Assembly: GCF_045037415.1 (NCBI RefSeq)
Contig: NZ_CP173438.1
From: Escherichia coli
Lineage (GTDB): Bacteria; Pseudomonadota; Gammaproteobacteria; Enterobacterales; Enterobacteriaceae
Length of the DNA: 64,000 nt
Reading direction: 5' to 3' (one strand)
The notes below the pieces were generated by a model that saw only the letters and a list, made by a program, of their open reading frames with translations, made no database searches and had not been told where the DNA came from. A program made the position numbers and the translations under genes. This document shows positions 1 through 40,637 of this stretch, piece by piece. Numbering within the stretch: position 1 is the first letter of the stretch; each line of letters begins with the position of its first letter.

Positions 1-903
1 CGCTCAGACATTACGGTGACAGAATGGCTTGATAAATATATTTCTATCCAAGAGGACAGGCTGCAACATAATGAACTAAGACCCAACTCCTATCGGCAAA
101 AAGGCAAACCCATTCGTCTTTTCCGTGAGCATTGTGGAATGCAACACCTCAAGGATATTACCGCACTTGATATTGCCGAAATAATTGATGCTGTAAAGGC
201 TGAAGGTCATAACAGGATGGCGCAAGTCGTGAGAATGGTGTTGATCGACGTCTTCAAAGAAGCACAACACGCAGGACATGTTCCGCCAGGATTTAACCCA
301 GCGCAGGCAACAAAACAACCGCGAAATCGAGTAAACCGCCAAAGATTGTCACTGCCCGAATGGCAGGCAATATTTGACAGCGTAAGCAGACGGCAGCCCT
401 ATTTAAAATGCGGCATGCTACTTGCTCTTGTTACTGGACAACGTTTAGGCGATATCTGCAATTTGAAATTCTCTGATATATGGGACGACATGTTGCACAT
501 TACTCAGGAAAAAACCGGTTCAAAACTTGCTATTCCGCTTAACCTGAAATGCGATGCTCTGAATATTACCCTTCGTGAAGTTATATCTCAGTGCAGGGAT
601 GCTGTTGTTAGTAAATATCTGGTCCATTACCGTCACACTACCTCTCAAGCAAACAGAGGAGACCAGGTTTCTGCAAATACTCTGACAACGGCTTTTAAAA
701 AGGCCCGGGAAAAATGTGGCATAAAATGGGAGCAAGGAACTGCGCCCACATTTCATGAGCAGCGATCTCTGTCAGAACGGTTATATCGGGAACAGGGTCT
801 GGATACGCAAAAGTTGTTAGGCCATAAATCCAGAAAAATGACCGACCGATACAATGATGATCGTGGTAAAGACTGGATTATCGTAGATATCAAAACAGCA
901 TAG
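1..903 (+). CDS. int: Lambda-family tyrosine integrase, 5'-truncated by the window edge (frame open to position 1)
   Basis: Translation ends ...HEQRSLSERLYREQGLDTQKLLGHKSRKMTDRYNDDRGKDWIIVDIKTA, closely paralleling the lambda Int C-terminus including the catalytic Tyr in the RY(N/R)DDRG motif and the HxxR box. No in-frame stop between position 1 and the GTG at 16. Confidence 0.85.
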   Translation, partial: RSDITVTEWLDKYISIQEDRLQHNELRPNSYRQKGKPIRLFREHCGMQHLKDITALDIAEIIDAVKAEGHNRMAQVVRMVLIDVFKEAQHAGHVPPGFNPAQATKQPRNRVNRQRLSLPEWQAIFDSVSRRQPYLKCGMLLALVTGQRLGDICNLKFSDIWDDMLHITQEKTGSKLAIPLNLKCDALNITLREVISQCRDAVVSKYLVHYRHTTSQANRGDQVSANTLTTAFKKAREKCGIKWEQGTAPTFHEQRSLSERLYREQGLDTQKLLGHKSRKMTDRYNDDRGKDWIIVDIKTA

Positions 904-913
904 AAAATAGCCA

Positions 914-950
914 GTTTTGGGGAAGGGTTTTGGGGAAAGTTTTGGGGAAG
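914..950. repeat. Three tandem direct repeats GTTTTGGGGAAGG / GTTTTGGGGAAAG / (G)TTTTGGGGAAG between int stop and icd terminator
   Basis: Read directly from the sequence: head-to-tail copies with 13-bp periodicity immediately downstream of the int stop codon. Confidence 0.85.
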
Positions 951-970
951 ATTTTACATCATCATAAAAC

Positions 971-993
971 AACGGGCGTGTTATACGCCCGTT
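971..993. terminator. Hairpin AACGGGCGTGTTATACGCCCGTT; likely rho-independent terminator for icd (minus strand), possibly bidirectional
   Basis: Perfect 9-bp stem with a T-rich tract following on the minus strand (TTGTTTTAT), about 25 nt downstream of the icd stop. Confidence 0.55.
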
Positions 994-1016
994 TCAATAT
1001 TTAACACATGTAGTGA

Positions 1017-2267
1017 TTACATATTCTTGATGATCGCGTCACCAAACTCTGAACATTTCAGCAGTTTAGCGCCTTCCATCAGACGTTCGAAGTCATAGGT
1101 TACGGTCTTGGCATTGATTGCGCCTTCCATACCTTTAACAATCAGGTCAGCCGCTTCAGTCCAACCCATATGGCGCAGCATCATCTCAGCGGAGAGAATA
1201 ATAGAGCCTGGGTTTACTTTGTCCTGTCCGGCATATTTCGGCGCAGTACCGTGGGTGGCTTCAAACAGGGCGCATTCGTCACCGATGTTTGCGCCAGGGG
1301 CGATACCGATACCACCAACCTGCGCTGCCAGGGCGTCAGAAATGTAGTCACCGTTCAGGTTCATACAGGCGATAACATCATATTCAGCCGGACGCAGCAG
1401 GATCTGTTGCAGGAATGCATCAGCAATCACGTCTTTAATGACGATCTCTTTGCCGGTATTCGGGTTTTTAACTTTCAGCCACGGGCCGCCGTCGATCAGT
1501 TCACCGCCAAATTCTTCACGCGCCAGTTGGTAGCCCCAGTCTTTAAACGCGCCTTCGGTGAACTTCATGATGTTGCCTTTGTGCACCAGGGTCACAGAGT
1601 CACGATCGTTAGCAATTGCGTATTCGATCGCTGCACGAACCAGACGTTTGGTGCCTTCTTCCGAACACGGCTTAATACCGATACCGCAATGTTCCGGGAA
1701 GCGAATTTTCTTCACGCCCATCTCTTCACGCAGGAATTTAATCACTTTCTCAGCGTCGGCAGAGTCTGCTTTCCATTCGATACCCGCATAAATGTCTTCC
1801 GAGTTTTCACGGAAGATAACCATATCGGTCAGTTCAGGGTGTTTAACCGGGCTTGGAGTGCCCTGATAGTAACGTACCGGACGCAGGCAGATGTAGAGAT
1901 CCAGTTCCTGGCGCAGGGCAACGTTCAGAGAGCGAATACCGCCACCAACCGGAGTGGTCAGCGGGCCTTTAATGGCAACGCGATATTCACGAATCAGATC
2001 AAGGGTTTCAGCAGGCAACCAGACGTCCTGACCATAAACCTGTGTGGATTTTTCACCGGTGTAAATTTCCATCCAGGAGATTTTACGCTCGCCTTTATAG
2101 GCTTTCTCGACTGCAGCGTCGACCACTTTCAGCATGGCTGGGGTTACATCTACACCGATTCCATCACCTTCAATGTAAGGGATAATCGGATTTTCAGGAA
2201 CGTTGAGTTTGCCGTTTTGCAGGGTGATCTTCTTGCCTTGTGCCGGAACAACTACTTTACTTTCCAT
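1017..2267 (-). CDS. icd: Isocitrate dehydrogenase (NADP)
   Basis: 416-aa [41 protein letters not shown]..., full-length match to the E. coli Icd sequence known from memory. Confidence 0.97.
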
Positions 2268-9149: not shown

Positions 9150-10271
9150 ATGGAATACCAACTCACTCTTAACTGGCCCGATTTTCTTGAACGTCACTGG
9201 CAGAAACGTCCGGTGGTGTTAAAACGCGGCTTTAATAATTTTATTGACCCGATCTCTCCAGACGAGTTGGCGGGTTTGGCGATGGAAAGCGAAGTCGACA
9301 GTCGACTGGTCAGTCATCAGGATGGCAAATGGCAGGTCAGCCACGGTCCATTCGAAAGCTACGATCATCTCGGTGAAACTAACTGGTCATTGTTAGTGCA
9401 AGCAGTGAACCACTGGCATGAGCCGACCGCCGCGCTAATGCGACCGTTCCGTGAACTACCGGACTGGCGTATTGATGATCTGATGATCTCTTTTTCTGTA
9501 CCGGGCGGCGGCGTCGGCCCGCATCTCGATCAGTACGACGTGTTTATCATTCAGGGTACCGGTCGTCGTCGCTGGCGAGTGGGCGAAAAGCTGCAAATGA
9601 AACAGCACTGCCCTCACCCGGATCTGTTACAGGTCGATCCGTTCGAAGCCATCATCGATGAAGAGCTGGAGCCTGGCGATATTCTTTATATTCCGCCAGG
9701 ATTCCCGCATGAAGGCTACGCGCTGGAAAATGCGATGAACTATTCCGTGGGTTTTCGCGCGCCAAATACGCGGGAACTGATTAGCGGATTTGCCGATTAT
9801 GTGCTGCAACGTGAACTGGGCGGCAACTACTACAGCGATCCTGATGTTCCACCTCGCGCTCATCCTGCGGACGTTCTGCCGCAAGAGATGGATAAACTGC
9901 GTGAGATGATGCTCGAATTGATCAACCAGCCAGAACATTTTAAGCAATGGTTTGGCGAGTTTATATCCCAGTCACGTCATGAACTGGATATCGCGCCGCC
10001 AGAGCCGCCTTATCAGCCGGATGAAATCTACGATGCGCTGAAACAAGGTGATGTGCTGGTGCGCCTGGGGGGTCTGCGCGTATTGCGCATTGGCGACGAC
10101 GTGTATGCCAATGGTGAGAAGATCGATTCCCCGCACCGTCCGGCACTGGATGCGCTCGCCAGCAACATTGCGCTGACCGCGGAGAATTTTGGCGATGCGC
10201 TGGAAGATCCGTCATTCCTCGCGATGCTCGCGGCGCTGGTCAATAGCGGATACTGGTTCTTCGAAGGGTAA
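9150..10271 (+). CDS. roxA: Ribosomal protein uL16 arginine hydroxylase (JmjC/cupin oxygenase, YcfD)
   Basis: MEYQLTLNWPDFLERHWQKRPVVLKRGF...; start at the MEYQ methionine gives 373 aa. Confidence 0.9.
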   Translation: MEYQLTLNWPDFLERHWQKRPVVLKRGFNNFIDPISPDELAGLAMESEVDSRLVSHQDGKWQVSHGPFESYDHLGETNWSLLVQAVNHWHEPTAALMRPFRELPDWRIDDLMISFSVPGGGVGPHLDQYDVFIIQGTGRRRWRVGEKLQMKQHCPHPDLLQVDPFEAIIDEELEPGDILYIPPGFPHEGYALENAMNYSVGFRAPNTRELISGFADYVLQRELGGNYYSDPDVPPRAHPADVLPQEMDKLREMMLELINQPEHFKQWFGEFISQSRHELDIAPPEPPYQPDEIYDALKQGDVLVRLGGLRVLRIGDDVYANGEKIDSPHRPALDALASNIALTAENFGDALEDPSFLAMLAALVNSGYWFFEG

Positions 10272-10286
10272 GTTTGGATTTAAGCC

Positions 10287-10317
10287 GGATGCGGCATCAC
10301 ATGCCGCATCCCTTTTC
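10287..10317. terminator. Palindromic hairpin GGATGCGGCAT-CAC-ATGCCGCATCC between convergent roxA and pepT
   Basis: Perfect 11-bp stem followed by TTTT on the plus strand; lies between the two convergent stop codons. Confidence 0.6.
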
Positions 10318-10319
10318 GC

Positions 10320-11546
10320 TTACTTCCGTTGCGCCGTCAACTCGGCAATACGGACGATCACCTGCACCGCTTTTTCCATACCTTCCAGAGTCACAAACTC
10401 ATGCTTACCATGATAGTTGTAACCGCCAGTGAACAGGTTCGGGCACGGTAATCCCATAAACGACAACTGCGCGCCGTCGGTACCGCCGCGGATCGGTTTC
10501 AGTTCCGGTTCAATATCGCAGTCACGCATCGCCTGCTGGGCGATATCGAGAATATGCGGATGCTCAACCACTTTCTCGCGCATATTGTAGTAACTGTCTT
10601 CAATCACCAGTTCAATGTAGCAATCAGGATGTAACCCTTTGCCCACTTTTTTGGCGATCTCCATCATTTTACGTTTACGCGCTTCAAACTGTTTACGGTC
10701 GAAATCACGGATGATGTAGTGCATATCGGCCCGTTCAACGGTGCCTTTCATGCTCGCCAGGTGATAGAAACCTTCATAGCCTTCTGTCATTTCCGGGCTT
10801 TCATCCGCCGGAACTTCCGCATGAATACGTGCCGCCAGCGACAGCGCATTTACCATCACTCCTTTCGCCGTGCCCGGGTGAACATTGTTACCGACAATTT
10901 TGATATTGACCGACGCGGCGTTGAAGTTTTCAAACTCCAGTTCACCTACGCCACCACCATCAACGGTGTAAGCCCAGCGGGCATCGAAGGCGTCAACATC
11001 AAAATGTTTCGCCCCTTTGCCCACTTCTTCATCCGGGGTAAAGGCGACGCGAATATCACCATGCGGAATGTTTTTTTGTTGCAATACCGCCAGCGCGGTC
11101 ATGATTTCTGCAATACCTGCTTTGTCATCGGCACCTAACAAGGTTTTACCATCGGTGGTAATCAGCGTCTGACCCAGTAGCTGATGCAGCACCGGGAACA
11201 TAACCGGTGATAAAACTTCATCGCCGATACCCAGCGCAATATCGCCACCGCGATAGTTTTCAACAATTTGCGGATTCACATTTTTGCCGCTGCAATCCGG
11301 TGAGGTATCCACATGAGAAATAAAGCCAATCGCCGGGATATCGCCAGGGACGTTAGCCGGTAACGTCGCCATCAAAGTGCCCTTCTCACTTAAGGTCACA
11401 TTGATAAGCCCCATCTCTTCGAGCTGCTCTTTCAGCAGATGCAATAACTTCCATTGGCCTTCCGTGCTGGGAACCTGTCTCACCCCTGCCTTTGATTGGG
11501 TATCAAGAGACACGTAGTTCAAAAATCGCTCAAGTAGTTTATCCAT
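10320..11546 (-). CDS. pepT: Peptidase T (tripeptide aminopeptidase)
   Basis: ORF contains [35 protein letters not shown]...; start at MDKLL gives 408 aa (ORF track extends 14 codons upstream). Confidence 0.93.
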
Positions 11547-11795
11547 GTAGTCACCCTCACTTTTTGTGACAACATTATTAAGAAGCAAGAAAAGACAAAT
11601 ATTGCGTCAGGTCACTTTTAGCCCTGCAAGCGGGAATATTTATCAGCATTACCTTAATGAATATAAAGCTAAGCCAGTAATTCACAACAAAGATTGGCGA
11701 TTCAAGCGGTTTGCCGTAGAATTACCGCCCTCATTAAGAGTCACCAAGGTGGTTAACCACAAACCCCGCATCGGTAAGCCATCCGTTGCGTTTAC

Positions 11796-12932
11796 ATGGG
11801 ACAGAGTAAAAAATTGAATAAACAACCGAGTTCGCTTTCACCGCTGGTGCAATTGGCGGGAATTCGCAAATGCTTTGATGGTAAAGAGGTCATTCCCCAG
11901 CTGGATCTGACTATCAACAATGGCGAGTTCCTCACGCTGCTTGGCCCTTCTGGCTGCGGTAAAACAACCGTTCTTCGCCTGATTGCAGGTCTGGAAACTG
12001 TTGATTCCGGACGCATCATGCTGGATAACGAGGACATCACCCACGTTCCGGCGGAAAACCGCTATGTGAACACTGTTTTCCAAAGCTACGCACTTTTCCC
12101 CCACATGACCGTGTTCGAAAATGTGGCCTTTGGGTTGCGCATGCAAAAAACCCCCGCAGCTGAAATTACGCCCCGCGTGATGGAAGCCCTGCGGATGGTG
12201 CAGCTGGAAACCTTCGCTCAACGCAAACCGCATCAGCTCTCTGGTGGTCAACAGCAACGCGTCGCCATTGCTCGCGCGGTGGTTAACAAGCCTCGTCTGT
12301 TGTTGCTGGATGAGTCGCTCTCAGCGCTGGATTACAAACTGCGTAAGCAAATGCAGAACGAGCTGAAAGCGTTACAGCGTAAGCTTGGCATTACATTCGT
12401 GTTCGTAACTCACGACCAGGAAGAAGCACTTACCATGTCGGACAGGATCGTGGTGATGCGCGATGGTCGCATTGAGCAAGACGGCACGCCGCGTGAAATC
12501 TACGAAGAGCCGAAAAACCTGTTTGTTGCCGGGTTTATTGGCGAAATCAATATGTTTAACGCCACTGTCATCGAACGTCTCGACGAGCAGCGCGTACGCG
12601 CCAACGTTGAAGGCCGCGAATGTAATATCTACGTTAACTTCGCCGTTGAACCGGGGCAAAAACTGCATGTTCTGCTGCGCCCGGAAGACTTACGTGTTGA
12701 AGAGATTAACGACGACAACCACGCCGAAGGGCTGATTGGTTACGTTCGCGAGCGTAACTACAAAGGCATGACGCTGGAGTCGGTTGTTGAGCTGGAAAAT
12801 GGCAAGATGGTGATGGTCAGCGAATTCTTCAATGAAGACGATCCTGACTTTGACCACTCTCTCGACCAAAAAATGGCCATTAATTGGGTAGAAAGCTGGG
12901 AGGTCGTACTGGCTGATGAAGAACACAAGTAA
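11796..12932 (+). CDS. potA: Spermidine/putrescine ABC transporter ATPase
   Basis: 378-aa ORF with Walker A (GPSGCGKTT), ABC signature ([14 protein letters not shown]) and Walker B. Confidence 0.96.
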
Positions 12933-12945
12933 GTTCCAGAATGTA

Positions 12946-13773
12946 GTGATTGTCACTATTGTCGGTTGGCTTGTGTTGTTTATCTTTCTGCCCAACCTGA
13001 TGATCATTGGCACCAGCTTTTTGACCCGCGACGACGCCAGTTTCGTCAAAATGGTCTTTACGCTGGATAACTACACGCGTCTGCTCGATCCGCTCTATTT
13101 TGAAGTGCTATTGCACTCGCTGAATATGGCGCTGATCGCCACCCTCGCCTGCCTGGTGCTGGGCTATCCTTTTGCCTGGTTTCTGGCGAAGCTGCCACAC
13201 AAGGTGCGTCCGCTGCTGCTGTTTCTGCTGATTGTTCCGTTCTGGACCAACTCATTGATTCGTATTTACGGGCTGAAAATTTTCCTCAGCACCAAAGGCT
13301 ATCTCAACGAGTTTTTGCTCTGGCTGGGCGTTATCGATACACCAATTCGCATCATGTTCACGCCTAGTGCGGTGATTATCGGTCTGGTTTACATTCTGCT
13401 GCCGTTTATGGTGATGCCGCTGTACTCCAGTATCGAAAAACTGGATAAGCCGTTGCTTGAGGCGGCGCGCGATCTCGGTGCCAGCAAGTTGCAGACCTTT
13501 ATTCGCATCATTATCCCACTGACGATGCCGGGAATTATTGCCGGATGTCTGCTGGTGATGCTGCCAGCGATGGGCCTGTTCTATGTGTCCGACCTGATGG
13601 GCGGTGCGAAAAACCTGCTGATCGGTAACGTCATCAAGGTACAGTTCCTCAATATTCGTGACTGGCCGTTTGGTGCAGCCACCAGCATTACGCTGACTAT
13701 CGTAATGGGCCTGATGTTGCTGGTTTACTGGCGCGCTTCTCGTTTGCTGAATAAGAAGGTGGAACTCGAATGA
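12946..13773 (+). CDS. potB: Spermidine/putrescine ABC transporter permease
   Basis: Polytopic membrane protein overlapping the potA end; GTG start at 12946 gives 275 aa, alternative ATG at 12916 gives 285 aa. Confidence 0.88.
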   Translation: MIVTIVGWLVLFIFLPNLMIIGTSFLTRDDASFVKMVFTLDNYTRLLDPLYFEVLLHSLNMALIATLACLVLGYPFAWFLAKLPHKVRPLLLFLLIVPFWTNSLIRIYGLKIFLSTKGYLNEFLLWLGVIDTPIRIMFTPSAVIIGLVYILLPFMVMPLYSSIEKLDKPLLEAARDLGASKLQTFIRIIIPLTMPGIIAGCLLVMLPAMGLFYVSDLMGGAKNLLIGNVIKVQFLNIRDWPFGAATSITLTIVMGLMLLVYWRASRLLNKKVELE

Positions 13774-14564
13774 TCGGTCGACTGCTTCGCGGCGGTTTTA
13801 TGACCGCTATCTACGCGTACCTGTATATCCCAATCATTATTTTGATTGTGAACTCCTTTAACAGCTCGCGCTTTGGCATCAACTGGCAGGGTTTTACCAC
13901 CAAATGGTATAGCCTGCTGATGAACAACGACAGCCTGTTACAGGCAGCGCAGCATTCACTTACAATGGCGGTGTTTTCGGCGACGTTTGCTACGCTTATC
14001 GGTTCACTGACGGCAGTTGCGCTGTACCGTTATCGCTTTCGTGGTAAGCCGTTCGTTAGCGGAATGCTGTTTGTGGTGATGATGTCACCAGATATCGTAA
14101 TGGCGATTTCGCTGCTGGTGCTGTTTATGCTGCTGGGTATTCAGCTTGGCTTCTGGTCGCTGCTGTTCTCGCATATCACCTTCTGCCTGCCATTTGTGGT
14201 AGTGACAGTGTATTCGCGCCTGAAAGGTTTTGACGTGCGAATGCTGGAAGCGGCGAAAGATCTCGGTGCCAGCGAATTTACCATTCTGCGAAAAATCATT
14301 CTGCCACTGGCAATGCCAGCGGTAGCGGCGGGCTGGGTGTTAAGCTTTACCCTGTCGATGGACGACGTGGTGGTTTCTTCGTTTGTCACCGGGCCGAGTT
14401 ATGAAATTCTGCCGTTAAAAATTTATTCGATGGTCAAAGTCGGCGTATCGCCGGAAGTTAACGCGCTGGCAACCATATTACTGGTGCTGTCGCTGGTGAT
14501 GGTAATTGCCAGCCAGCTTATTGCTCGTGATAAAACGAAAGGTAACACAGGGGACGTTAAATGA
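13770..14564 (+). CDS. potC: Spermidine/putrescine ABC transporter permease
   Basis: 264-aa membrane ORF overlapping the potB stop (ATGA). Confidence 0.95.
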   Translation: MIGRLLRGGFMTAIYAYLYIPIIILIVNSFNSSRFGINWQGFTTKWYSLLMNNDSLLQAAQHSLTMAVFSATFATLIGSLTAVALYRYRFRGKPFVSGMLFVVMMSPDIVMAISLLVLFMLLGIQLGFWSLLFSHITFCLPFVVVTVYSRLKGFDVRMLEAAKDLGASEFTILRKIILPLAMPAVAAGWVLSFTLSMDDVVVSSFVTGPSYEILPLKIYSMVKVGVSPEVNALATILLVLSLVMVIASQLIARDKTKGNTGDVK

Positions 14565-15607
14565 AAAAATGGTCACGCCACCTGCTCGCGGCGGGTGCTC
14601 TGGCACTGGGCATGAGCGCCGCTCACGCCGATGACAACAACACGCTGTATTTCTACAACTGGACCGAGTACGTGCCGCCAGGACTGCTTGAACAGTTCAC
14701 CAAAGAAACCGGTATTAAGGTTATCTATTCGACTTACGAGTCGAACGAAACCATGTACGCGAAGCTGAAAACGTACAAAGACGGTGCCTATGACCTGGTG
14801 GTTCCTTCAACCTATTACGTCGATAAAATGCGTAAAGAAGGGATGATCCAGAAGATCGACAAGTCGAAGTTAAGCAATTTCAGCAACCTCGATCCAGACA
14901 TGCTCAACAAGCCGTTTGACCCGAATAACGACTATTCCATTCCGTATATCTGGGGTGCGACGGCGATTGGCGTTAACGGTGATGCGGTGGATCCGAAATC
15001 TGTCACCAGCTGGGCCGATCTGTGGAAGCCTGAGTACAAAGGCAGCCTGCTGCTGACCGACGATGCCCGTGAAGTGTTCCAGATGGCGCTGCGTAAGCTG
15101 GGCTACTCCGGTAACACCACCGATCCGAAAGAGATTGAAGCTGCATACAACGAGCTGAAAAAGCTGATGCCAAACGTCGCGGCGTTTAACTCCGATAACC
15201 CGGCGAACCCGTATATGGAAGGCGAAGTTAACCTCGGCATGATCTGGAACGGTTCTGCTTTCGTTGCACGCCAGGCGGGTACGCCAATTGATGTGGTGTG
15301 GCCGAAAGAAGGCGGTATTTTCTGGATGGACAGCCTGGCGATCCCGGCAAATGCCAAAAACAAAGAAGGCGCGCTGAAATTGATCAACTTCCTGCTGCGC
15401 CCGGATGTGGCAAAACAGGTTGCTGAAACTATCGGTTATCCAACGCCAAACCTTGCGGCGCGTAAGCTGTTAAGTCCGGAAGTGGCGAACGATAAAACGC
15501 TCTACCCGGATGCTGAAACCATTAAAAATGGTGAATGGCAGAATGACGTTGGCGCAGCCAGCAGCATTTATGAAGAGTATTATCAGAAGCTGAAAGCAGG
15601 ACGTTAA
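14561..15607 (+). CDS. potD: Spermidine/putrescine periplasmic binding protein
   Basis: 348-aa ORF with signal peptide MKKWSRHLLAAGALALGMSAAHA; overlaps the potC stop. Confidence 0.96.
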   Translation: MKKWSRHLLAAGALALGMSAAHADDNNTLYFYNWTEYVPPGLLEQFTKETGIKVIYSTYESNETMYAKLKTYKDGAYDLVVPSTYYVDKMRKEGMIQKIDKSKLSNFSNLDPDMLNKPFDPNNDYSIPYIWGATAIGVNGDAVDPKSVTSWADLWKPEYKGSLLLTDDAREVFQMALRKLGYSGNTTDPKEIEAAYNELKKLMPNVAAFNSDNPANPYMEGEVNLGMIWNGSAFVARQAGTPIDVVWPKEGGIFWMDSLAIPANAKNKEGALKLINFLLRPDVAKQVAETIGYPTPNLAARKLLSPEVANDKTLYPDAETIKNGEWQNDVGAASSIYEEYYQKLKAGR

Positions 15608-15611
15608 TTCA

Positions 15612-15648
15612 GCAAGCGGGCGGTGATATTACCGCCCGTTTTTTATTT
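15612..15648 (+). terminator. Rho-independent terminator of the potABCD operon
   Basis: GCGGGCGGT-GATATT-ACCGCCCG hairpin followed by TTTTTTATTT, 5 nt after the potD stop. Confidence 0.8.
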
Positions 15649-15664
15649 AGCAAGGATGTGGCTA

Positions 15665-16126
15665 ATGAGCCAGGACAGTAGAGTTTTCTTTCGTATATTC
15701 TTCGGTATCGGTCTGGTACTGATCCTCATTTCTGTTGTTATCTTTTATAACCAGTTCACCTATAGCAAAGACGCGATTCATACTGAAGGCGTCATTGTTG
15801 ATACCGTCTGGCACTCCAGTCATTCTCATCGCACGGGTAAAAATGGTTCGTGGTATCCCGTCGTTGCCTTTCGTCCGACGCCAGATTACACGCTAATTTT
15901 CAATTCGAGTATTGGCAGCGATTTTTATGAAGGCAGCGAAGGCGATAAAGTTAATGTTTATTATTCTCCAGGACATCCTGAAAAGGCTGAGATAAATAAC
16001 CCGTGGGTTAATTTTTTTAAATGGGGGTTTATCGGCATTATGGGCGTTATTTTTATCTCCGTCGGTTTATTAATCAGTATGCCCTCCTCTAAAAAGACAC
16101 GCAGGAAACGGAAGTCCCGCCCATGA
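15665..16126 (+). CDS. ymfA: Inner membrane protein YmfA (unknown function)
   Basis: [30 protein letters not shown]...; two hydrophobic segments; start at the MSQD methionine gives 153 aa. Confidence 0.8.
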
Positions 16127-16911
16127 AAAAAATCATAATATTGCTCAGTTTACTGATACTCCTGCCTCTGACGGCAACCAGTAAGCCCTTAATTCCAATA
16201 ATGAAGACACTTTTTACGGATGTTACCGGTACTGTACCAGATGCTGAAGAGATCGCGCATAAAGCCGAGCTTTTTCGCCAACAAACCGGAGTTGCACCGT
16301 TTATTGTGGTTTTACCCGACATTAATAATGAAGCCAGTCTCAGGCAAAATGGCAAAGCGATGCTGGCGCATGCGGCATCTTCAATGAGTAATGTAAAAGG
16401 AAGTGTTCTGTTACTCTTTACTACCCGCGAGCCACGGTTAATTATGATAACCAACGGCCAGGTTGAAAGCGGTCTGGACGATAAACATCTCGGCCTTCTG
16501 GTAGAAAATCACACGCTGGCTTATTTACATGCGGACCTCTGGTATCAGGGTATCAATAATGCATTGGCTGTTTTACAAGCACAGATATTAAAACAACCGA
16601 CGCCACCACTGACATATTATCCGCATCCCGGACAACAGCATGAAAATGATCCACCCGGCAGTACCACGACATTAGGCCTTTTTGCCTGGGCAGTTGCATT
16701 CATCGTCTTTGCTGCATTTTTTAACTACACAACGCGCCTTTATTATGCGTTAAAATTTGCAGTGGCGATGGCTGTTGCCAATATGGGTTATCAGGCTTTA
16801 TGTTTGTATATCGATAACAGCTTTGCGATTACCAGAATATCGCCACTCTGGGCAGGGCTGATTGGTGTCTGTACGTTTATTGCCGCGTTACTATGGACGA
16901 GTAAACGGTAA
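16123..16911 (+). CDS. ycfZ: Inner membrane protein YcfZ (unknown function)
   Basis: 262-aa ORF with N-terminal signal/TM and C-terminal TM segments; start overlaps the ymfA stop (ATGA). Confidence 0.85.
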
Positions 16912-16937
16912 AAGAGGCAGTAAAGTTCGCGTGTATT

Positions 16938-17037
16938 ATGCCGGATGCGGCGCGAACGCCTTATCCGGCCCACAAAACCCGCAAATTCAATTAATTGCGC
17001 CCCTTCACAGGCCTGACAAGCGTAGCGCATCAGGCAA
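16938..17037. repeat. REP/BIME element (two REP units)
   Basis: GCCGGATGCGGCGCGAACGCCTTATCCGGCC and GCCTGACAAGCGTAGCGCATCAGGC, typical E. coli REP palindromes between the convergent ycfZ and cobB. Confidence 0.85.
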
Positions 17038-17048
17038 TTTTTCCCGCT

Positions 17049-17870
17049 TTATAATCCCTTCAGCAACTTTTCAACAAACTCTGGCACCACCTGGCTTGCC
17101 GGACCGTAATATTTCTCGGCAAATTCATTACCAACCTGACTCGGTTCAAGATTCAGTTCCACGGTGTGCGCGCCATGCAGTTTCGCTTCGTGAACAAACC
17201 CAGCCGCCGGATAAACATGCCCCGAAGTACCAATGGCAATGAAAATATCGGCCATCGACAACGCCATATAAATTTCATCCATGCCGAGTGGCATTTCGCC
17301 AAACCACACTACGTGCGGGCGCAAGGGTGCCGGGAACTGGCAACAATGGCATTTATCTTCTGGCGTAACGTCTCCGGTCCAGTCGAGGACCTGGCCACTT
17401 TGCGAACAACGTACTTTCAGCAATTCCCCATGCATATGAATCACATTGGTATTGCCTGCGCGTTCATGCAGGTTATCGATATTTTGCGTCACCAGCAAAA
17501 AGCGATCGCCGAGAGCATCTTGCAGTTTCGCCAGCGCAAGATGTGCAGCGTTAGGCTGAATTTCTGGCTGCTGCAACTGTCGACGACGGGCGTTATAAAA
17601 CGTTTGCACCAGTTCAGGATCGCGATCAAAACCTTCCGGCGTTGCCACATCTTCAACCCGATGTTCTTCCCACAGGCCATCTGCGGCGCGAAAGGTACGA
17701 ATACCTGATTCCGCAGAAATCCCTGCCCCTGTCAGTACGAGTACTCTTGGTTTTTCCATTGCTTCCGGCACCACTTTATCTCTGAAAAAAATACGCTGAC
17801 GCAAACGCTCGCGCAGGCGGCGTTTATTTTTACGAAAACGACTTAACCGATGACCCCGACGCGACAGCAT
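17049..17870 (-). CDS. cobB: NAD-dependent protein deacylase (sirtuin) CobB, long isoform
   Basis: 273-aa ORF; Arg/Lys-rich N-terminal extension then [24 protein letters not shown] (Rossmann GAGISAESG) and a Zn-binding Cys cluster. A short isoform would start at the internal Met (about 17759). Confidence 0.93.
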
Positions 17871-17885
17871 AGCAACCTCTGTTGA

Positions 17886-18797
17886 TTAATCGGTTAGATG
17901 TAGGAAGGCCGCACCACGCATTCCTCCCGCATCACCGTGGCGCGCGCGTTCAATGCGCGGAACACGAGCTACAGGTAAGAGATGACGAGGCAACCTTTCC
18001 GCCAGTTGCGTTGTGATTGCCGGGAAATTCGATAAGCCACCACCAATGACGACCAGGTCAGGGTCAACAATGGTCAGGATATTTCCCAGACAAACCGCTA
18101 ATAAATCCAGATAACGCTCAACGTGCGCCCTTGCCTGCTCATCGCCTTGATCATAAAGCGCAATGATCTCAGGAGCCTGCAACGGTTGATGATAATAGTG
18201 TTGATACAGCCACGCAAAACCGCGACCAGACAGATAATTTTCAATGCAGCCATGCTGACCACAGCCGCAGCGGCGTAACGGGAAATCCAGCCCCATCATG
18301 GTTAACGCATCAACCGGCAGACGCATATGGCCAAACTCGCCGGTAATATAGCTTTTACCGGTAATTGGTTTACCGTTGAAAATCAGCCCGCCGCCAACGC
18401 CGGTGCCGAGAATCAACCCCATCACCAGTGGATATTGAGTAAATTCATCATCCCATGCTTCAGAAAGGGCAAAACAGTTGGCATCGTTATCAAGGCGTAC
18501 ATCGCGATCAAGACGTGCGCTCAGGTCGGCACGCAGCGGTTTACCGCTGGCAGCAGGGACATTGGCGGCATACAGCGTACCATCTTCTGTTTCCGGCATA
18601 CCCGGAATACCAATGCCGACAGAACCTTTACAGCCAAAACGTTGGTCAGCTTCGGCTACCAGCTCGCACACTGCATCTAAAAATGCGTCATAGCTGTCAC
18701 GCGGTGTCGGCACCCGCTTTTCCCACTGCAACTGCCGACCGCTATCAAACACGCCTAGCGCAATTTTTGTTCCACCAATATCAAACCCGTAATACAT
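17886..18797 (-). CDS. nagK: N-acetyl-D-glucosamine kinase
   Basis: [18 protein letters not shown]... ROK-family kinase; start at MYYGF gives 303 aa. Confidence 0.93.
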
Positions 18798-18825
18798 TGC
18801 CGCTCCTTGTTTTAATGTACTGCCT

Positions 18826-22074
<3,249 letters not shown>

Positions 22075-35852: not shown

Positions 35853-38042
35853 ATGCTTTCGACACAATTTAACAGGGATAATCAACATCAAGCCATCATC
35901 AAACCGTCACTCCTTGCCGGTTGCATAGCACTGGCACTATTACCTTCCGCCGCTTTTGCTGCACCAGCCACTGAAGAAACGGTGATTGTTGAGGGTTCAG
36001 CCACAGCCCCAGATGATGGCGAAAATGATTACAACGTAACGTCTACCTCTGCGGGTACAAAAATGCAGATGACTCAACGTGATATTCCTCAGTCGGTCAC
36101 TATTGTTAGCCAGCAGCGGATGGAAGATCAGCAGTTACAAACGCTGGGCGAAGTGATGGAAAACACGCTGGGGATCAGCAAAAGTCAGGCGGATTCCGAT
36201 CGTGCTCTTTATTATTCCCGCGGATTCCAGATCGATAACTATATGGTTGATGGTATCCCCACCTATTTTGAATCGCGCTGGAATCTGGGCGACGCACTTT
36301 CTGATATGGCACTGTTTGAACGCGTAGAAGTAGTGCGTGGCGCGACAGGCCTCATGACCGGGACGGGTAATCCATCTGCGGCAATTAATATGGTTCGAAA
36401 ACACGCGACCAGTCGTGAATTTAAAGGCGATGTCTCGGCGGAATACGGTAGCTGGAACAAAGAACGGTATGTGGCGGATTTACAAAGCCCACTCACCGAA
36501 GACGGTAAAATCCGCGCACGAATTGTCGGCGGCTACCAGAATAACGACTCATGGCTGGACCGCTACAACAGTGAAAAGACCTTCTTCTCCGGCATTGTCG
36601 ATGCTGATTTAGGCGATCTTACGATGCTTTCAGCCGGTTACGAATATCAGCGTATTGATGTTAATAGCCCAACCTGGGGCGGTTTACCGCGCTGGAATAC
36701 TGATGGCAGCAGCAACAGTTACGATCGCGCACGCAGTACCGCACCTGACTGGGCGTACAACGATAAAGAGATCAACAAGGTCTTTATGACCCTGAAGCAG
36801 CGGTTTGCTGATACCTGGCAAGCGACGCTGAATGCCACCCACTCTGAAGTCGAATTTGACAGCAAAATGATGTATGTCGATGCCTATGTAAACAAAGCGG
36901 ATGGTATGCTGGTTGGGCCATACAGTAATTATGGCCCTGGTTTTGATTATGTCGGAGGCACCGGTTGGAACAGCGGCAAACGTAAAGTTGATGCGCTGGA
37001 TCTGTTCGCTGACGGTAGTTATGAATTGTTTGGTCGTCAGCACAATTTAATGTTTGGTGGCAGTTACAGCAAACAAAACAATCGTTACTTCAGTTCATGG
37101 GCCAACATTTTCCCGGATGAAATTGGCAGTTTCTACAACTTTAATGGCAATTTCCCACAAACCGACAGGTCACCACAGAGTCTGGCGCAGGACGATACCA
37201 CACATATGAAATCGTTATATGCTGCCACTCGTGTCACCCTTGCCGATCCGCTGCATCTGATCCTCGGCGCACGTTATACCAAGTGGCGGGTTGATACGCT
37301 GACTTACAGCATGGAGAAAAACCACACCACGCCTTATGCTGGACTGGTGTTTGACATCAATGATAACTGGTCGACCTACGCCAGCTATACCTCTATTTTT
37401 CAGCCGCAAAATGATCGTGACAGTTCAGGCAAATATCTGGCACCAATCACCGGTAACAACTACGAGCTGGGTCTGAAATCGGACTGGATGAATAGCCGTC
37501 TGACCACCACGTTAGCCATCTTCCGTATTGAGCAGGATAATGTCGCTCAGTCCACCGGTACACCTATCCCCGGCAGCAACGGCGAAACCGCCTATAAAGC
37601 GGTGGATGGGACAGTCAGTAAAGGTGTGGAATTTGAACTCAACGGCGCAATTACCGACAACTGGCAGCTGACGTTTGGCGCAACGCGCTATATTGCAGAG
37701 GATAACGAAGGAAACGCCGTTAATCCTAATCTGCCACGCACCACGGTTAAAATGTTCACCAGCTATCGGTTGCCTGTCATGCCAGAGTTGACGGTCGGCG
37801 GTGGTGTTAACTGGCAAAATCGCGTGTATACCGACACCGTGACACCGTATGGCACCTTCCGCGCCGAGCAAGGTAGCTACGCGCTGGTGGATCTCTTCAC
37901 CCGCTACCAGGTGACGAAAAACTTCTCGTTACAGGGGAACGTCAATAACCTGTTCGACAAAACCTACGATACCAACGTGGAAGGTTCTATTGTCTACGGC
38001 GCACCGCGTAATTTAAGCATTACCGGCACGTATCAATTCTGA
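35853..38042 (+). CDS. fhuE: TonB-dependent ferric coprogen/rhodotorulic acid receptor
   Basis: 729-aa ORF with signal peptide, TonB box/plug and C-terminal beta-barrel ending ...ITGTYQF. Confidence 0.96.
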   Translation: MLSTQFNRDNQHQAIIKPSLLAGCIALALLPSAAFAAPATEETVIVEGSATAPDDGENDYNVTSTSAGTKMQMTQRDIPQSVTIVSQQRMEDQQLQTLGEVMENTLGISKSQADSDRALYYSRGFQIDNYMVDGIPTYFESRWNLGDALSDMALFERVEVVRGATGLMTGTGNPSAAINMVRKHATSREFKGDVSAEYGSWNKERYVADLQSPLTEDGKIRARIVGGYQNNDSWLDRYNSEKTFFSGIVDADLGDLTMLSAGYEYQRIDVNSPTWGGLPRWNTDGSSNSYDRARSTAPDWAYNDKEINKVFMTLKQRFADTWQATLNATHSEVEFDSKMMYVDAYVNKADGMLVGPYSNYGPGFDYVGGTGWNSGKRKVDALDLFADGSYELFGRQHNLMFGGSYSKQNNRYFSSWANIFPDEIGSFYNFNGNFPQTDRSPQSLAQDDTTHMKSLYAATRVTLADPLHLILGARYTKWRVDTLTYSMEKNHTTPYAGLVFDINDNWSTYASYTSIFQPQNDRDSSGKYLAPITGNNYELGLKSDWMNSRLTTTLAIFRIEQDNVAQSTGTPIPGSNGETAYKAVDGTVSKGVEFELNGAITDNWQLTFGATRYIAEDNEGNAVNPNLPRTTVKMFTSYRLPVMPELTVGGGVNWQNRVYTDTVTPYGTFRAEQGSYALVDLFTRYQVTKNFSLQGNVNNLFDKTYDTNVEGSIVYGAPRNLSITGTYQF

Positions 38043-39829: not shown

Positions 39830-40627
39830 TCAACGGATGGATTGAAGGCGGGAAGCATCGATGTGAAACAGACGGGCGAAGTTATCGGTGGTTACCTGCG
39901 CCAGTTCTTCAACGGCAACACCTTTCAACACAGCCATGTATTCTGCAACGTCACGAACCATCGCAGGTTGATTCTCTTTTCCTCGATGCGGTACTGGCGC
40001 AAGGTAAGGTGAGTCAGTTTCCACCAGTAACCGATCCAGGGGGACATAACGCGCAGCATCGCGCAGTTGCTCCGCATTACGGAAGGTCACAATGCCGGAA
40101 AAGGAGATGTAAAATCCGAGATCCAGTAATTTACCCGCCGTTTCTCTGTCCTCTGTAAAACAGTGTAGTACGCCACCGCAATCCGTCACTTTTTCTTCGC
40201 GCAGAATTGCCAGCGTATCGGCGCGGGCGTCACGGGTGTGGACGATAACCGGCTTGTTCAGTTCACGACCAATCTGGATATGATGGATGAAGGACTCTTG
40301 CTGACGTACTTTAGTTTCCGGCGTGTAATAATAATCCAGCCCGGTTTCACCCAGCGCTACAACGCCCTCTTCTGCCGCCAGACGACGTAAATCTTCTACA
40401 TCGTAGGGATCATTCTGGTTGAGTGGATGCACGCCACAAGAAAATACGACGTTGTCGCGTTCGCCTACCAGATCCCGCATGTGTAAATAACCCGGTAATG
40501 TTGTGGCGACTGCCAGACAAAATTTCACATCGCGTGCGGCGGCTTTCGCCAGAACGTCATCCACGTCCTTATGCAAAGATTCATAATCCAGACCATCGAG
40601 ATGGCAGTGTGAGTCGACTAAAAACAT
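39830..40627 (-). CDS. ycfH: TatD-family metal-dependent hydrolase YcfH
   Basis: [34 protein letters not shown]...; start at MFLVDSHCH gives 265 aa. Confidence 0.9.
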
Positions 40628-40637
40628 GATGTCTCTC

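Follow-up and report, generated by a model that had tools for sequence, protein, structure and literature searches.

A phage 21-type integrase and attachment site at the 3' end of icd in an Escherichia coli chromosome matching ST131

The window, by which we mean the whole 64,000-nucleotide stretch of Escherichia coli DNA analysed, opens inside an integrase gene that runs toward icd. The int reading frame (1–903, plus strand; listed as 16–903 in the ORF scan) is open from base 1 and ends with a TAG at 901–903, so the gene is cut by the window edge: the window begins at codon 81 and retains the C-terminal 300 of 380 codons, while the N-terminal arm-binding domain and xis lie to its left. The icd gene (1017–2267, minus strand), identified by ORF scan and protein comparison, is intact, with a product of 416 aa. 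It runs toward int, and 113 bp (904–1016) separate the two. The sequence-only reading had described a lambda-family integrase truncated at the window edge, 113 bp from the icd stop and convergent with it, and the ORFs and the lambda Int alignment bear this out exactly. The 300 aa align with residues 73–356 of lambda Int (E = 3.5e-52), and the catalytic R, K, HxxR, H, and Y are conserved in the segments VTGQRLGD, KTGSKLAIP, FHEQRS, LLGHKS, and DRY. The product is a tyrosine recombinase of the lambda Int family with core-binding and catalytic domains and the R-K-H-R-H-Y residues in place, and the frame, judged by these alignments, is no chance ORF.

The integrase fragment is 100% identical to the 380-aa integrase of strain JJ1886 (WP_000741335.1) and 99.0% identical to phage 21 Int, with three substitutions in 300 aa; phage 21 Int and the full JJ1886 protein share 99.2% over 380 aa. 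At the DNA level, positions 1–1016 matched 28 phage records at 97.5–99.9% identity, with the phage 21 records OL657228.1 and M61865.1 at 99.0–99.1%. By all these comparisons, the integrase is essentially identical to that of phage 21, and published work on that phage makes it probable that the Int/Xis module is of an active type.

The spacer between int and icd consists of two elements. The P' arm of the att site (904–963, no strand assigned) is phage-specific: it matches phage 21 attP exactly and is missing at prophage-free icd loci. The arm contains three putative arm-type Int-binding dodecamers on the minus strand, at 915–926, 928–939, and 940–951, which were recovered both as repeats and as consensus matches. 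They read TTTTGGGGAARR on the plus strand and YYTTCCCCAAAA on the minus strand and constitute a direct-repeat family (D1) with 13/12-bp spacing and exact matches to the consensus at 915, 928, and 940. The phage 21 record OL657228.1 annotates the same three sites as P1P2P3 with the consensus YYTTCCCCAAAA, and the three dodecamers between int and the icd homology are thus the P' arm sites of a phage 21-type module; from published phage 21 work, Int would be expected to bind them. The second element is the Rho-independent icd terminator (971–993, minus strand), a hairpin with a 9-bp stem and a 5-nt loop followed by GTTTTAT, which was detected as an inverted repeat (I1) and by a terminator scan and is part of the phage 21 annotation. 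The annotated order in phage 21 is int, attP P1P2P3, terminator, and a 165-bp ICDH-like pseudogene, and the order in the window is identical. As the 113-bp spacer is made up of the P' arm and the icd terminator, its compact length is phage-encoded.

We aligned the window with phage 21 attP, the far-end icd' copy of JJ1886, icd and icdC of K-12, and icd of the prophage-free strain YZ22MPE6. Positions 880–963 matched phage 21 without a difference and bore no relation to the prophage-free locus, positions 964–1180 were common to phage and host, and past 1180 the window followed the host icd while phage 21 diverged. Among genomes without the integrase, homology to the window ended at 964. The 217 bp at 964–1180 (minus strand) are the attP/attB homology, comprising the terminator and a surrogate icd 3' end of 165 coding bp, and the last 54 icd codons lie inside it; these codons are the part that a phage 21-type insertion would supply. 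The genomes of phages 4A7, 3W, and Perceval carry 904–1180 at 99.3% identity. Because phage 21 attP carries the spacer as well as the final 165 bp of icd, the junction between host and prophage lies inside icd, near 1181, and not at 1016. The earlier placement of a prophage boundary at icd thus holds for the gene but not for the position, as phage-type homology reaches to 1180. In the same way, the integrase does abut icd in a compact layout, but the adjoining icd 3' end, previously taken for the host gene, is the phage-borne surrogate. The Int crossover must fall within 964–1180; we would put it at the icd-proximal edge of the homology, at about 1165–1180, because the homology runs 217 bp downstream and the phage must supply the icd tail.

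The Icd protein of the window is identical to that of the prophage-free YZ22MPE6 (both WP_000444487.1), which means that a 21-type integration is silent at the protein level. K-12 Icd differs from it only at E398D and K414E, both in the tail supplied by e14. The arrangement is, on the alignments, one in which a phage-borne icd 3' surrogate and terminator stand beside int and icd is kept intact.

At the nucleotide level, the window and the type phage 21 differ by 13 substitutions within the 217 bp of 964–1180 (94% identity), and 964–1148 is identical in the window and in the prophage-free host allele of YZ22MPE6. Given these 13 differences and the host-identical segment, sequence alone cannot prove whether the tail arrived with the phage or was acquired by later exchange between the copies. 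A phage origin is nevertheless fully compatible with the alignments: the variants of the icd tail recur in phage copies, displaced copies, and prophage-free hosts in our polymorphism comparison and are common to the phage and host pools. Within the duplicated segment, the window has C and C at positions 1149 and 1152, like K-12 icdC, where the far-end icd', phage 21, and the prophage-free host have T and G, and the phage 21-specific GCTG at 1050–1053 is found in neither ST131 copy. Such a mosaic of SNPs suggests that phages and hosts share these alleles or have exchanged them.

The layout is that expected under the Campbell model for phage 21, and what we say of Int activity, arm binding, and the point of crossover is modeled on that phage. 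Under the model, the tyrosine integrase would exchange strands between attP and attB, its N-terminal domain (outside the window) binding the arm dodecamers. The icd 3' end and terminator would come with the phage as a 217-bp copy beside int, and a crossover at the upstream edge of this homology would swap the host icd tail for the phage copy. With the host tail replaced by the phage copy, icd would stay intact and its protein unchanged, and the original tail would be displaced by ~48 kb to become a pseudogene, icd'. For e14 the model would involve the same attB and a 62%-identical integrase, but with ymfD-ymfE-lit in the P'-side arm. The integration of phage 21 and e14 at icd is reportedly the subject of a 1997 study by Wang et al. 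from the Campbell laboratory, which PMC12803456 cites as J Bacteriol 179:5705.

The far end of the element lies outside the window, and what the prophage carries to the left was predicted from JJ1886 and the other genomes that match. Over its first 25 kb, the window shows 100% identity to many ST131 chromosomes, among the matches listed JJ1886, JJ1887, O25b:H4, MNCRE44, and uk_P46212, and every genome identical over 25 kb in that list is ST131. From 14192 to 64000, the window and JJ1886 differ by one mismatch in 49,809 bases (99.998%). On this evidence, we assign the window to an E. coli ST131 chromosome.

Left of int, JJ1886 carries a complete lambdoid prophage of ~48 kb that extends from icd to a displaced icd' pseudogene, as the earlier proposal to extend the sequence leftward had anticipated. 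From the int side (JJ1886 coordinates are those of L004), the prophage consists of xis overlapping int, exo, bet, gam, and a kil-like gene, followed by an S24 repressor, a cro-like gene, and O/P-like replication genes. Next come a gene for a 1,421-aa inverse autotransporter, an alpha/beta hydrolase gene, nin-region genes, Q, and lysis genes, and then iss (19604–19897), terminase, head, and tail genes, sitABCD (43176–46625), and a gene for a 256-aa hypothetical protein. At the far end, beside ymgL/ycgX, is a 168-bp pseudogene annotated as [quoted passage not shown] The second att copy, which the sequence-only reading had proposed to look for as a duplicated icd 3' segment, was found here at 48543–48760, with 94.5% identity to window positions 964–1180. 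A fourth consensus dodecamer, of the P arm, is found at 48412 and precedes icd' by 131 bp, exactly as it does in phage 21 attP, and we interpret this pair as the distal attachment site of the JJ1886 element. The xis gene is directly upstream of int and overlaps it in both JJ1886 and a second genome, SK1144.

In JJ1886, the gene for the side tail fibre (40482–42503) is annotated as two pseudogene pieces with an unannotated gap of ~630 bp between them, and the prophage may lack side fibres, like laboratory lambda.

Taken together, the identity and architecture of the locus, the att copies of the matching genome, and the prevalence of the junction (below) make it almost certain that positions 1–1180 are the int-proximal end of a phage 21-type lambdoid prophage at the classical icd attB in ST131. 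The alternative that fares best is an orphan remnant, a decayed island of which only int and the att arm are left beside icd. The window is cut at int codon 81 and so contains no proof of a complete prophage, and shortened icd islands do exist, such as the 12-kb PAI-ED1a-icd and the 29-kb PAI-UM146-icd (PMC7545054). We nevertheless consider a remnant very improbable: the genomes identical over 25 kb were all ST131 among the matches listed, JJ1886, with its single mismatch over 49.8 kb, has a complete 48-kb prophage with both att copies, and its first 23 kb of prophage are covered to at least 80% in 310 genomes.

The second alternative derives the locus from e14 by deletion of ymfD-ymfE-lit, which would have brought intE beside icd. 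The e14 element shares with the phage 21-type element the icd attB, the convergent orientation of int and icd, the surrogate icd 3' end, and the displaced icdC (PMC6379469), a pseudogene that marks its far end in K-12. In K-12 MG1655, the icd and intE stops are 3,305 bp apart, with C0293, ymfD, ymfE, and lit in between, so that the placement of ymfD-ymfE-lit given in the sequence-only reading was right, with the sRNA gene C0293 there as well, and the suggested comparison of int–icd spacing gave 113 bp here against 3,305 bp in K-12. The window has neither an IntE-type integrase nor ymfD-ymfE-lit between icd and int, and our Rfam scan of the whole window at the gathering threshold found no match in 1–2300 and no C0293-like sRNA downstream of icd. 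Its Int is 62% identical to IntE as against 99% to phage 21 Int, which upholds the earlier suggestion of a phage 21-like element and not e14; its spacer is identical to phage 21 attP, dodecamers included; and its icd tail lacks the e14-type D398 and E414. The e14 element itself is a 15-kb defective element whose icd tail changes two residues. The integrase, spacer, and Icd alignments refute the deletion reading, which retains hardly any credibility.

A third icd-targeting integrase lineage, known with the same layout, a 112-bp spacer, and similar dodecamers, is equally hard to credit as the source of the window and is refuted by integrase identity, the window Int being 99% identical to phage 21 Int and not 82%. 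We found this lineage in E. coli 98227 (NZ_CP173466.1; L008, 2200–3342), where xis and int lie in that order and the repeats (TTTTGGGGAA) resemble the dodecamers of the window. Int of this strain shares 82% identity with phage 21 Int and 61% with IntE; the junction DNA is 81% identical. The lineage may correspond to the "Atlas"-type icd prophage of ECOR strains.

The phage 21-type prophage of ST131 is not phage 21 throughout. The two agree at the int end, where Int is 99% identical, the P' arm and its three dodecamers are identical, the terminator and 165-bp icd surrogate have equal order and spacing, and xis and the red region beside int show 97% DNA identity; phage 21 also carries sitABCD and a bor/iss-like gene. 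Over the whole JJ1886 prophage, however, phage 21 aligns to only 68%, with identities of 95–99.7% in the int-red, tail, sit/att, and lysis-cos regions and 66–69% in the head genes. The immunity region and most of the replication region do not align, nor does the stretch that begins just past P and takes in the autotransporter/hydrolase insert, nin, Q, and the first lysis genes. The insert consists of the genes for the 1,421-aa inverse autotransporter and the 347-aa alpha/beta hydrolase (10141–15486), which lie between replication gene P and ybcN; it is absent from phage 21, whose alignment leaves 9882–19110 uncovered.

The element has been catalogued under another name. Pathogenicity islands of the PAI-icd type (PAI-536-icd, PAI-CFT073-icd, PAI-UTI89-icd, and, in ST131, PAI-EC14142-icd) have the same insertion site and a size of ~46–49 kb; they encode the Iss and Sit systems, and their integrase, of the Phi21 type, follows immediately downstream of icd (PMC9686529, PMC7545054). 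They are the same element under a pathogenicity-island name, with mosaicism from strain to strain. Both Iss and Sit are listed for the islands of 536, UTI89, RS218, IHE3034, S88, APEC O1, and LF82, and the Sit system alone for that of CFT073 (review, PMC7545054). With ~48 kb at icd, sitABCD, and iss, the JJ1886 prophage is such an island. Prophage NC-SV of the AIEC strain NC101 is related by description; its reported sRNA, svsR, maps to the cI 3' end, a region outside the window.

To assess prevalence, we searched 5,426 complete E. coli genomes with a 1,001-bp junction probe over int, spacer, and icd, counting matches at ≥80% coverage. The phage 21-type junction was present in 1,676 genomes (31%), always annotated as "icd | site-specific integrase," and an equivalent probe for the K-12 e14 junction found 281. 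The arrangement in the window is therefore the commoner and the e14 layout of K-12 the rarer one in E. coli. The feature is an already known and very common phage 21-like prophage end, catalogued as the ExPEC "PAI-icd," and carries little weight as a discovery. The phage is a textbook example: it inserts into a gene of an essential pathway but brings along a replacement 3' end, so the gene is not inactivated. The practical import is for annotation, as the segment that a phage 21-type insertion supplies takes in both the terminator and the final 165 bp of icd, which is an MLST locus, and the prophage end should be drawn accordingly within the gene.

The att/int boundary holds nothing new. The sequence-only reading had pointed to the cargo left of the window as the likeliest place for novelty, an expectation that does not hold up: what the prophage carries is the Sit/Iss set familiar from PAI-icd (PMC9686529, PMC7545054), and none of nine accessory proteins scanned in JJ1886 had a PADLOC match. 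The nine were the hydrolase, the 256-aa hypothetical protein by sitA, YdaT-like, TonB-like, and ASCH proteins, two tail-distal small proteins, a 71-aa protein, and the inverse autotransporter. The 600 bp that separate the kil-like gene from the repressor gene in JJ1886 are unannotated, and apart from the ORFs of these two genes they contain only ORFs of ≤40 aa. There is only a slim chance that the source prophage carries an unrecognised accessory function, for which the autotransporter/hydrolase insert in the nin region and the small genes around the immunity region might be candidates. As the prophage varies between strains, ≥80% coverage of the first 23 kb of the JJ1886 form being limited to 310 genomes, the exact cargo of the source strain can only be predicted from its relatives.

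The icd prophage of SK1144 (coordinates of L001) illustrates this variation. It has another Q/lysis region, with QuuD, and an ompC-like porin gene near the lysis cassette (1645–2727) that is absent from JJ1886. Beside its repressor, at the site where lambda carries rexAB, lies a gene for a 337-aa hypothetical protein (13929–14942) without a JJ1886 counterpart, followed by ~900 bp of unannotated DNA. SK1144 matches the window at 99.99% identity up to window position 13761, the potB/potC junction, and then diverges (L001, 33761 onward): phage tail-fibre genes follow potB, indicating another prophage there, and potABCD of the window is uninterrupted.

Further observations concern the surroundings of the site. 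In the prophage-free YZ22MPE6, iraM, ymgK, ymgL, and ycgX follow directly after icd. The phage genome ON470584.1 (vB_EcoM-689R6) contains, at 37353–37567, an icd 3' fragment with 90% identity to window positions 966–1180, and this phage, named as a myovirus, may be another, unrelated icd-targeting phage. Elsewhere in the window, the gathering-level Rfam matches were the SraB sRNA (50647–50815, minus strand) and the RNase E 5' UTR element rne5 (52676–53012, plus strand), both expected core-genome features beside rne.
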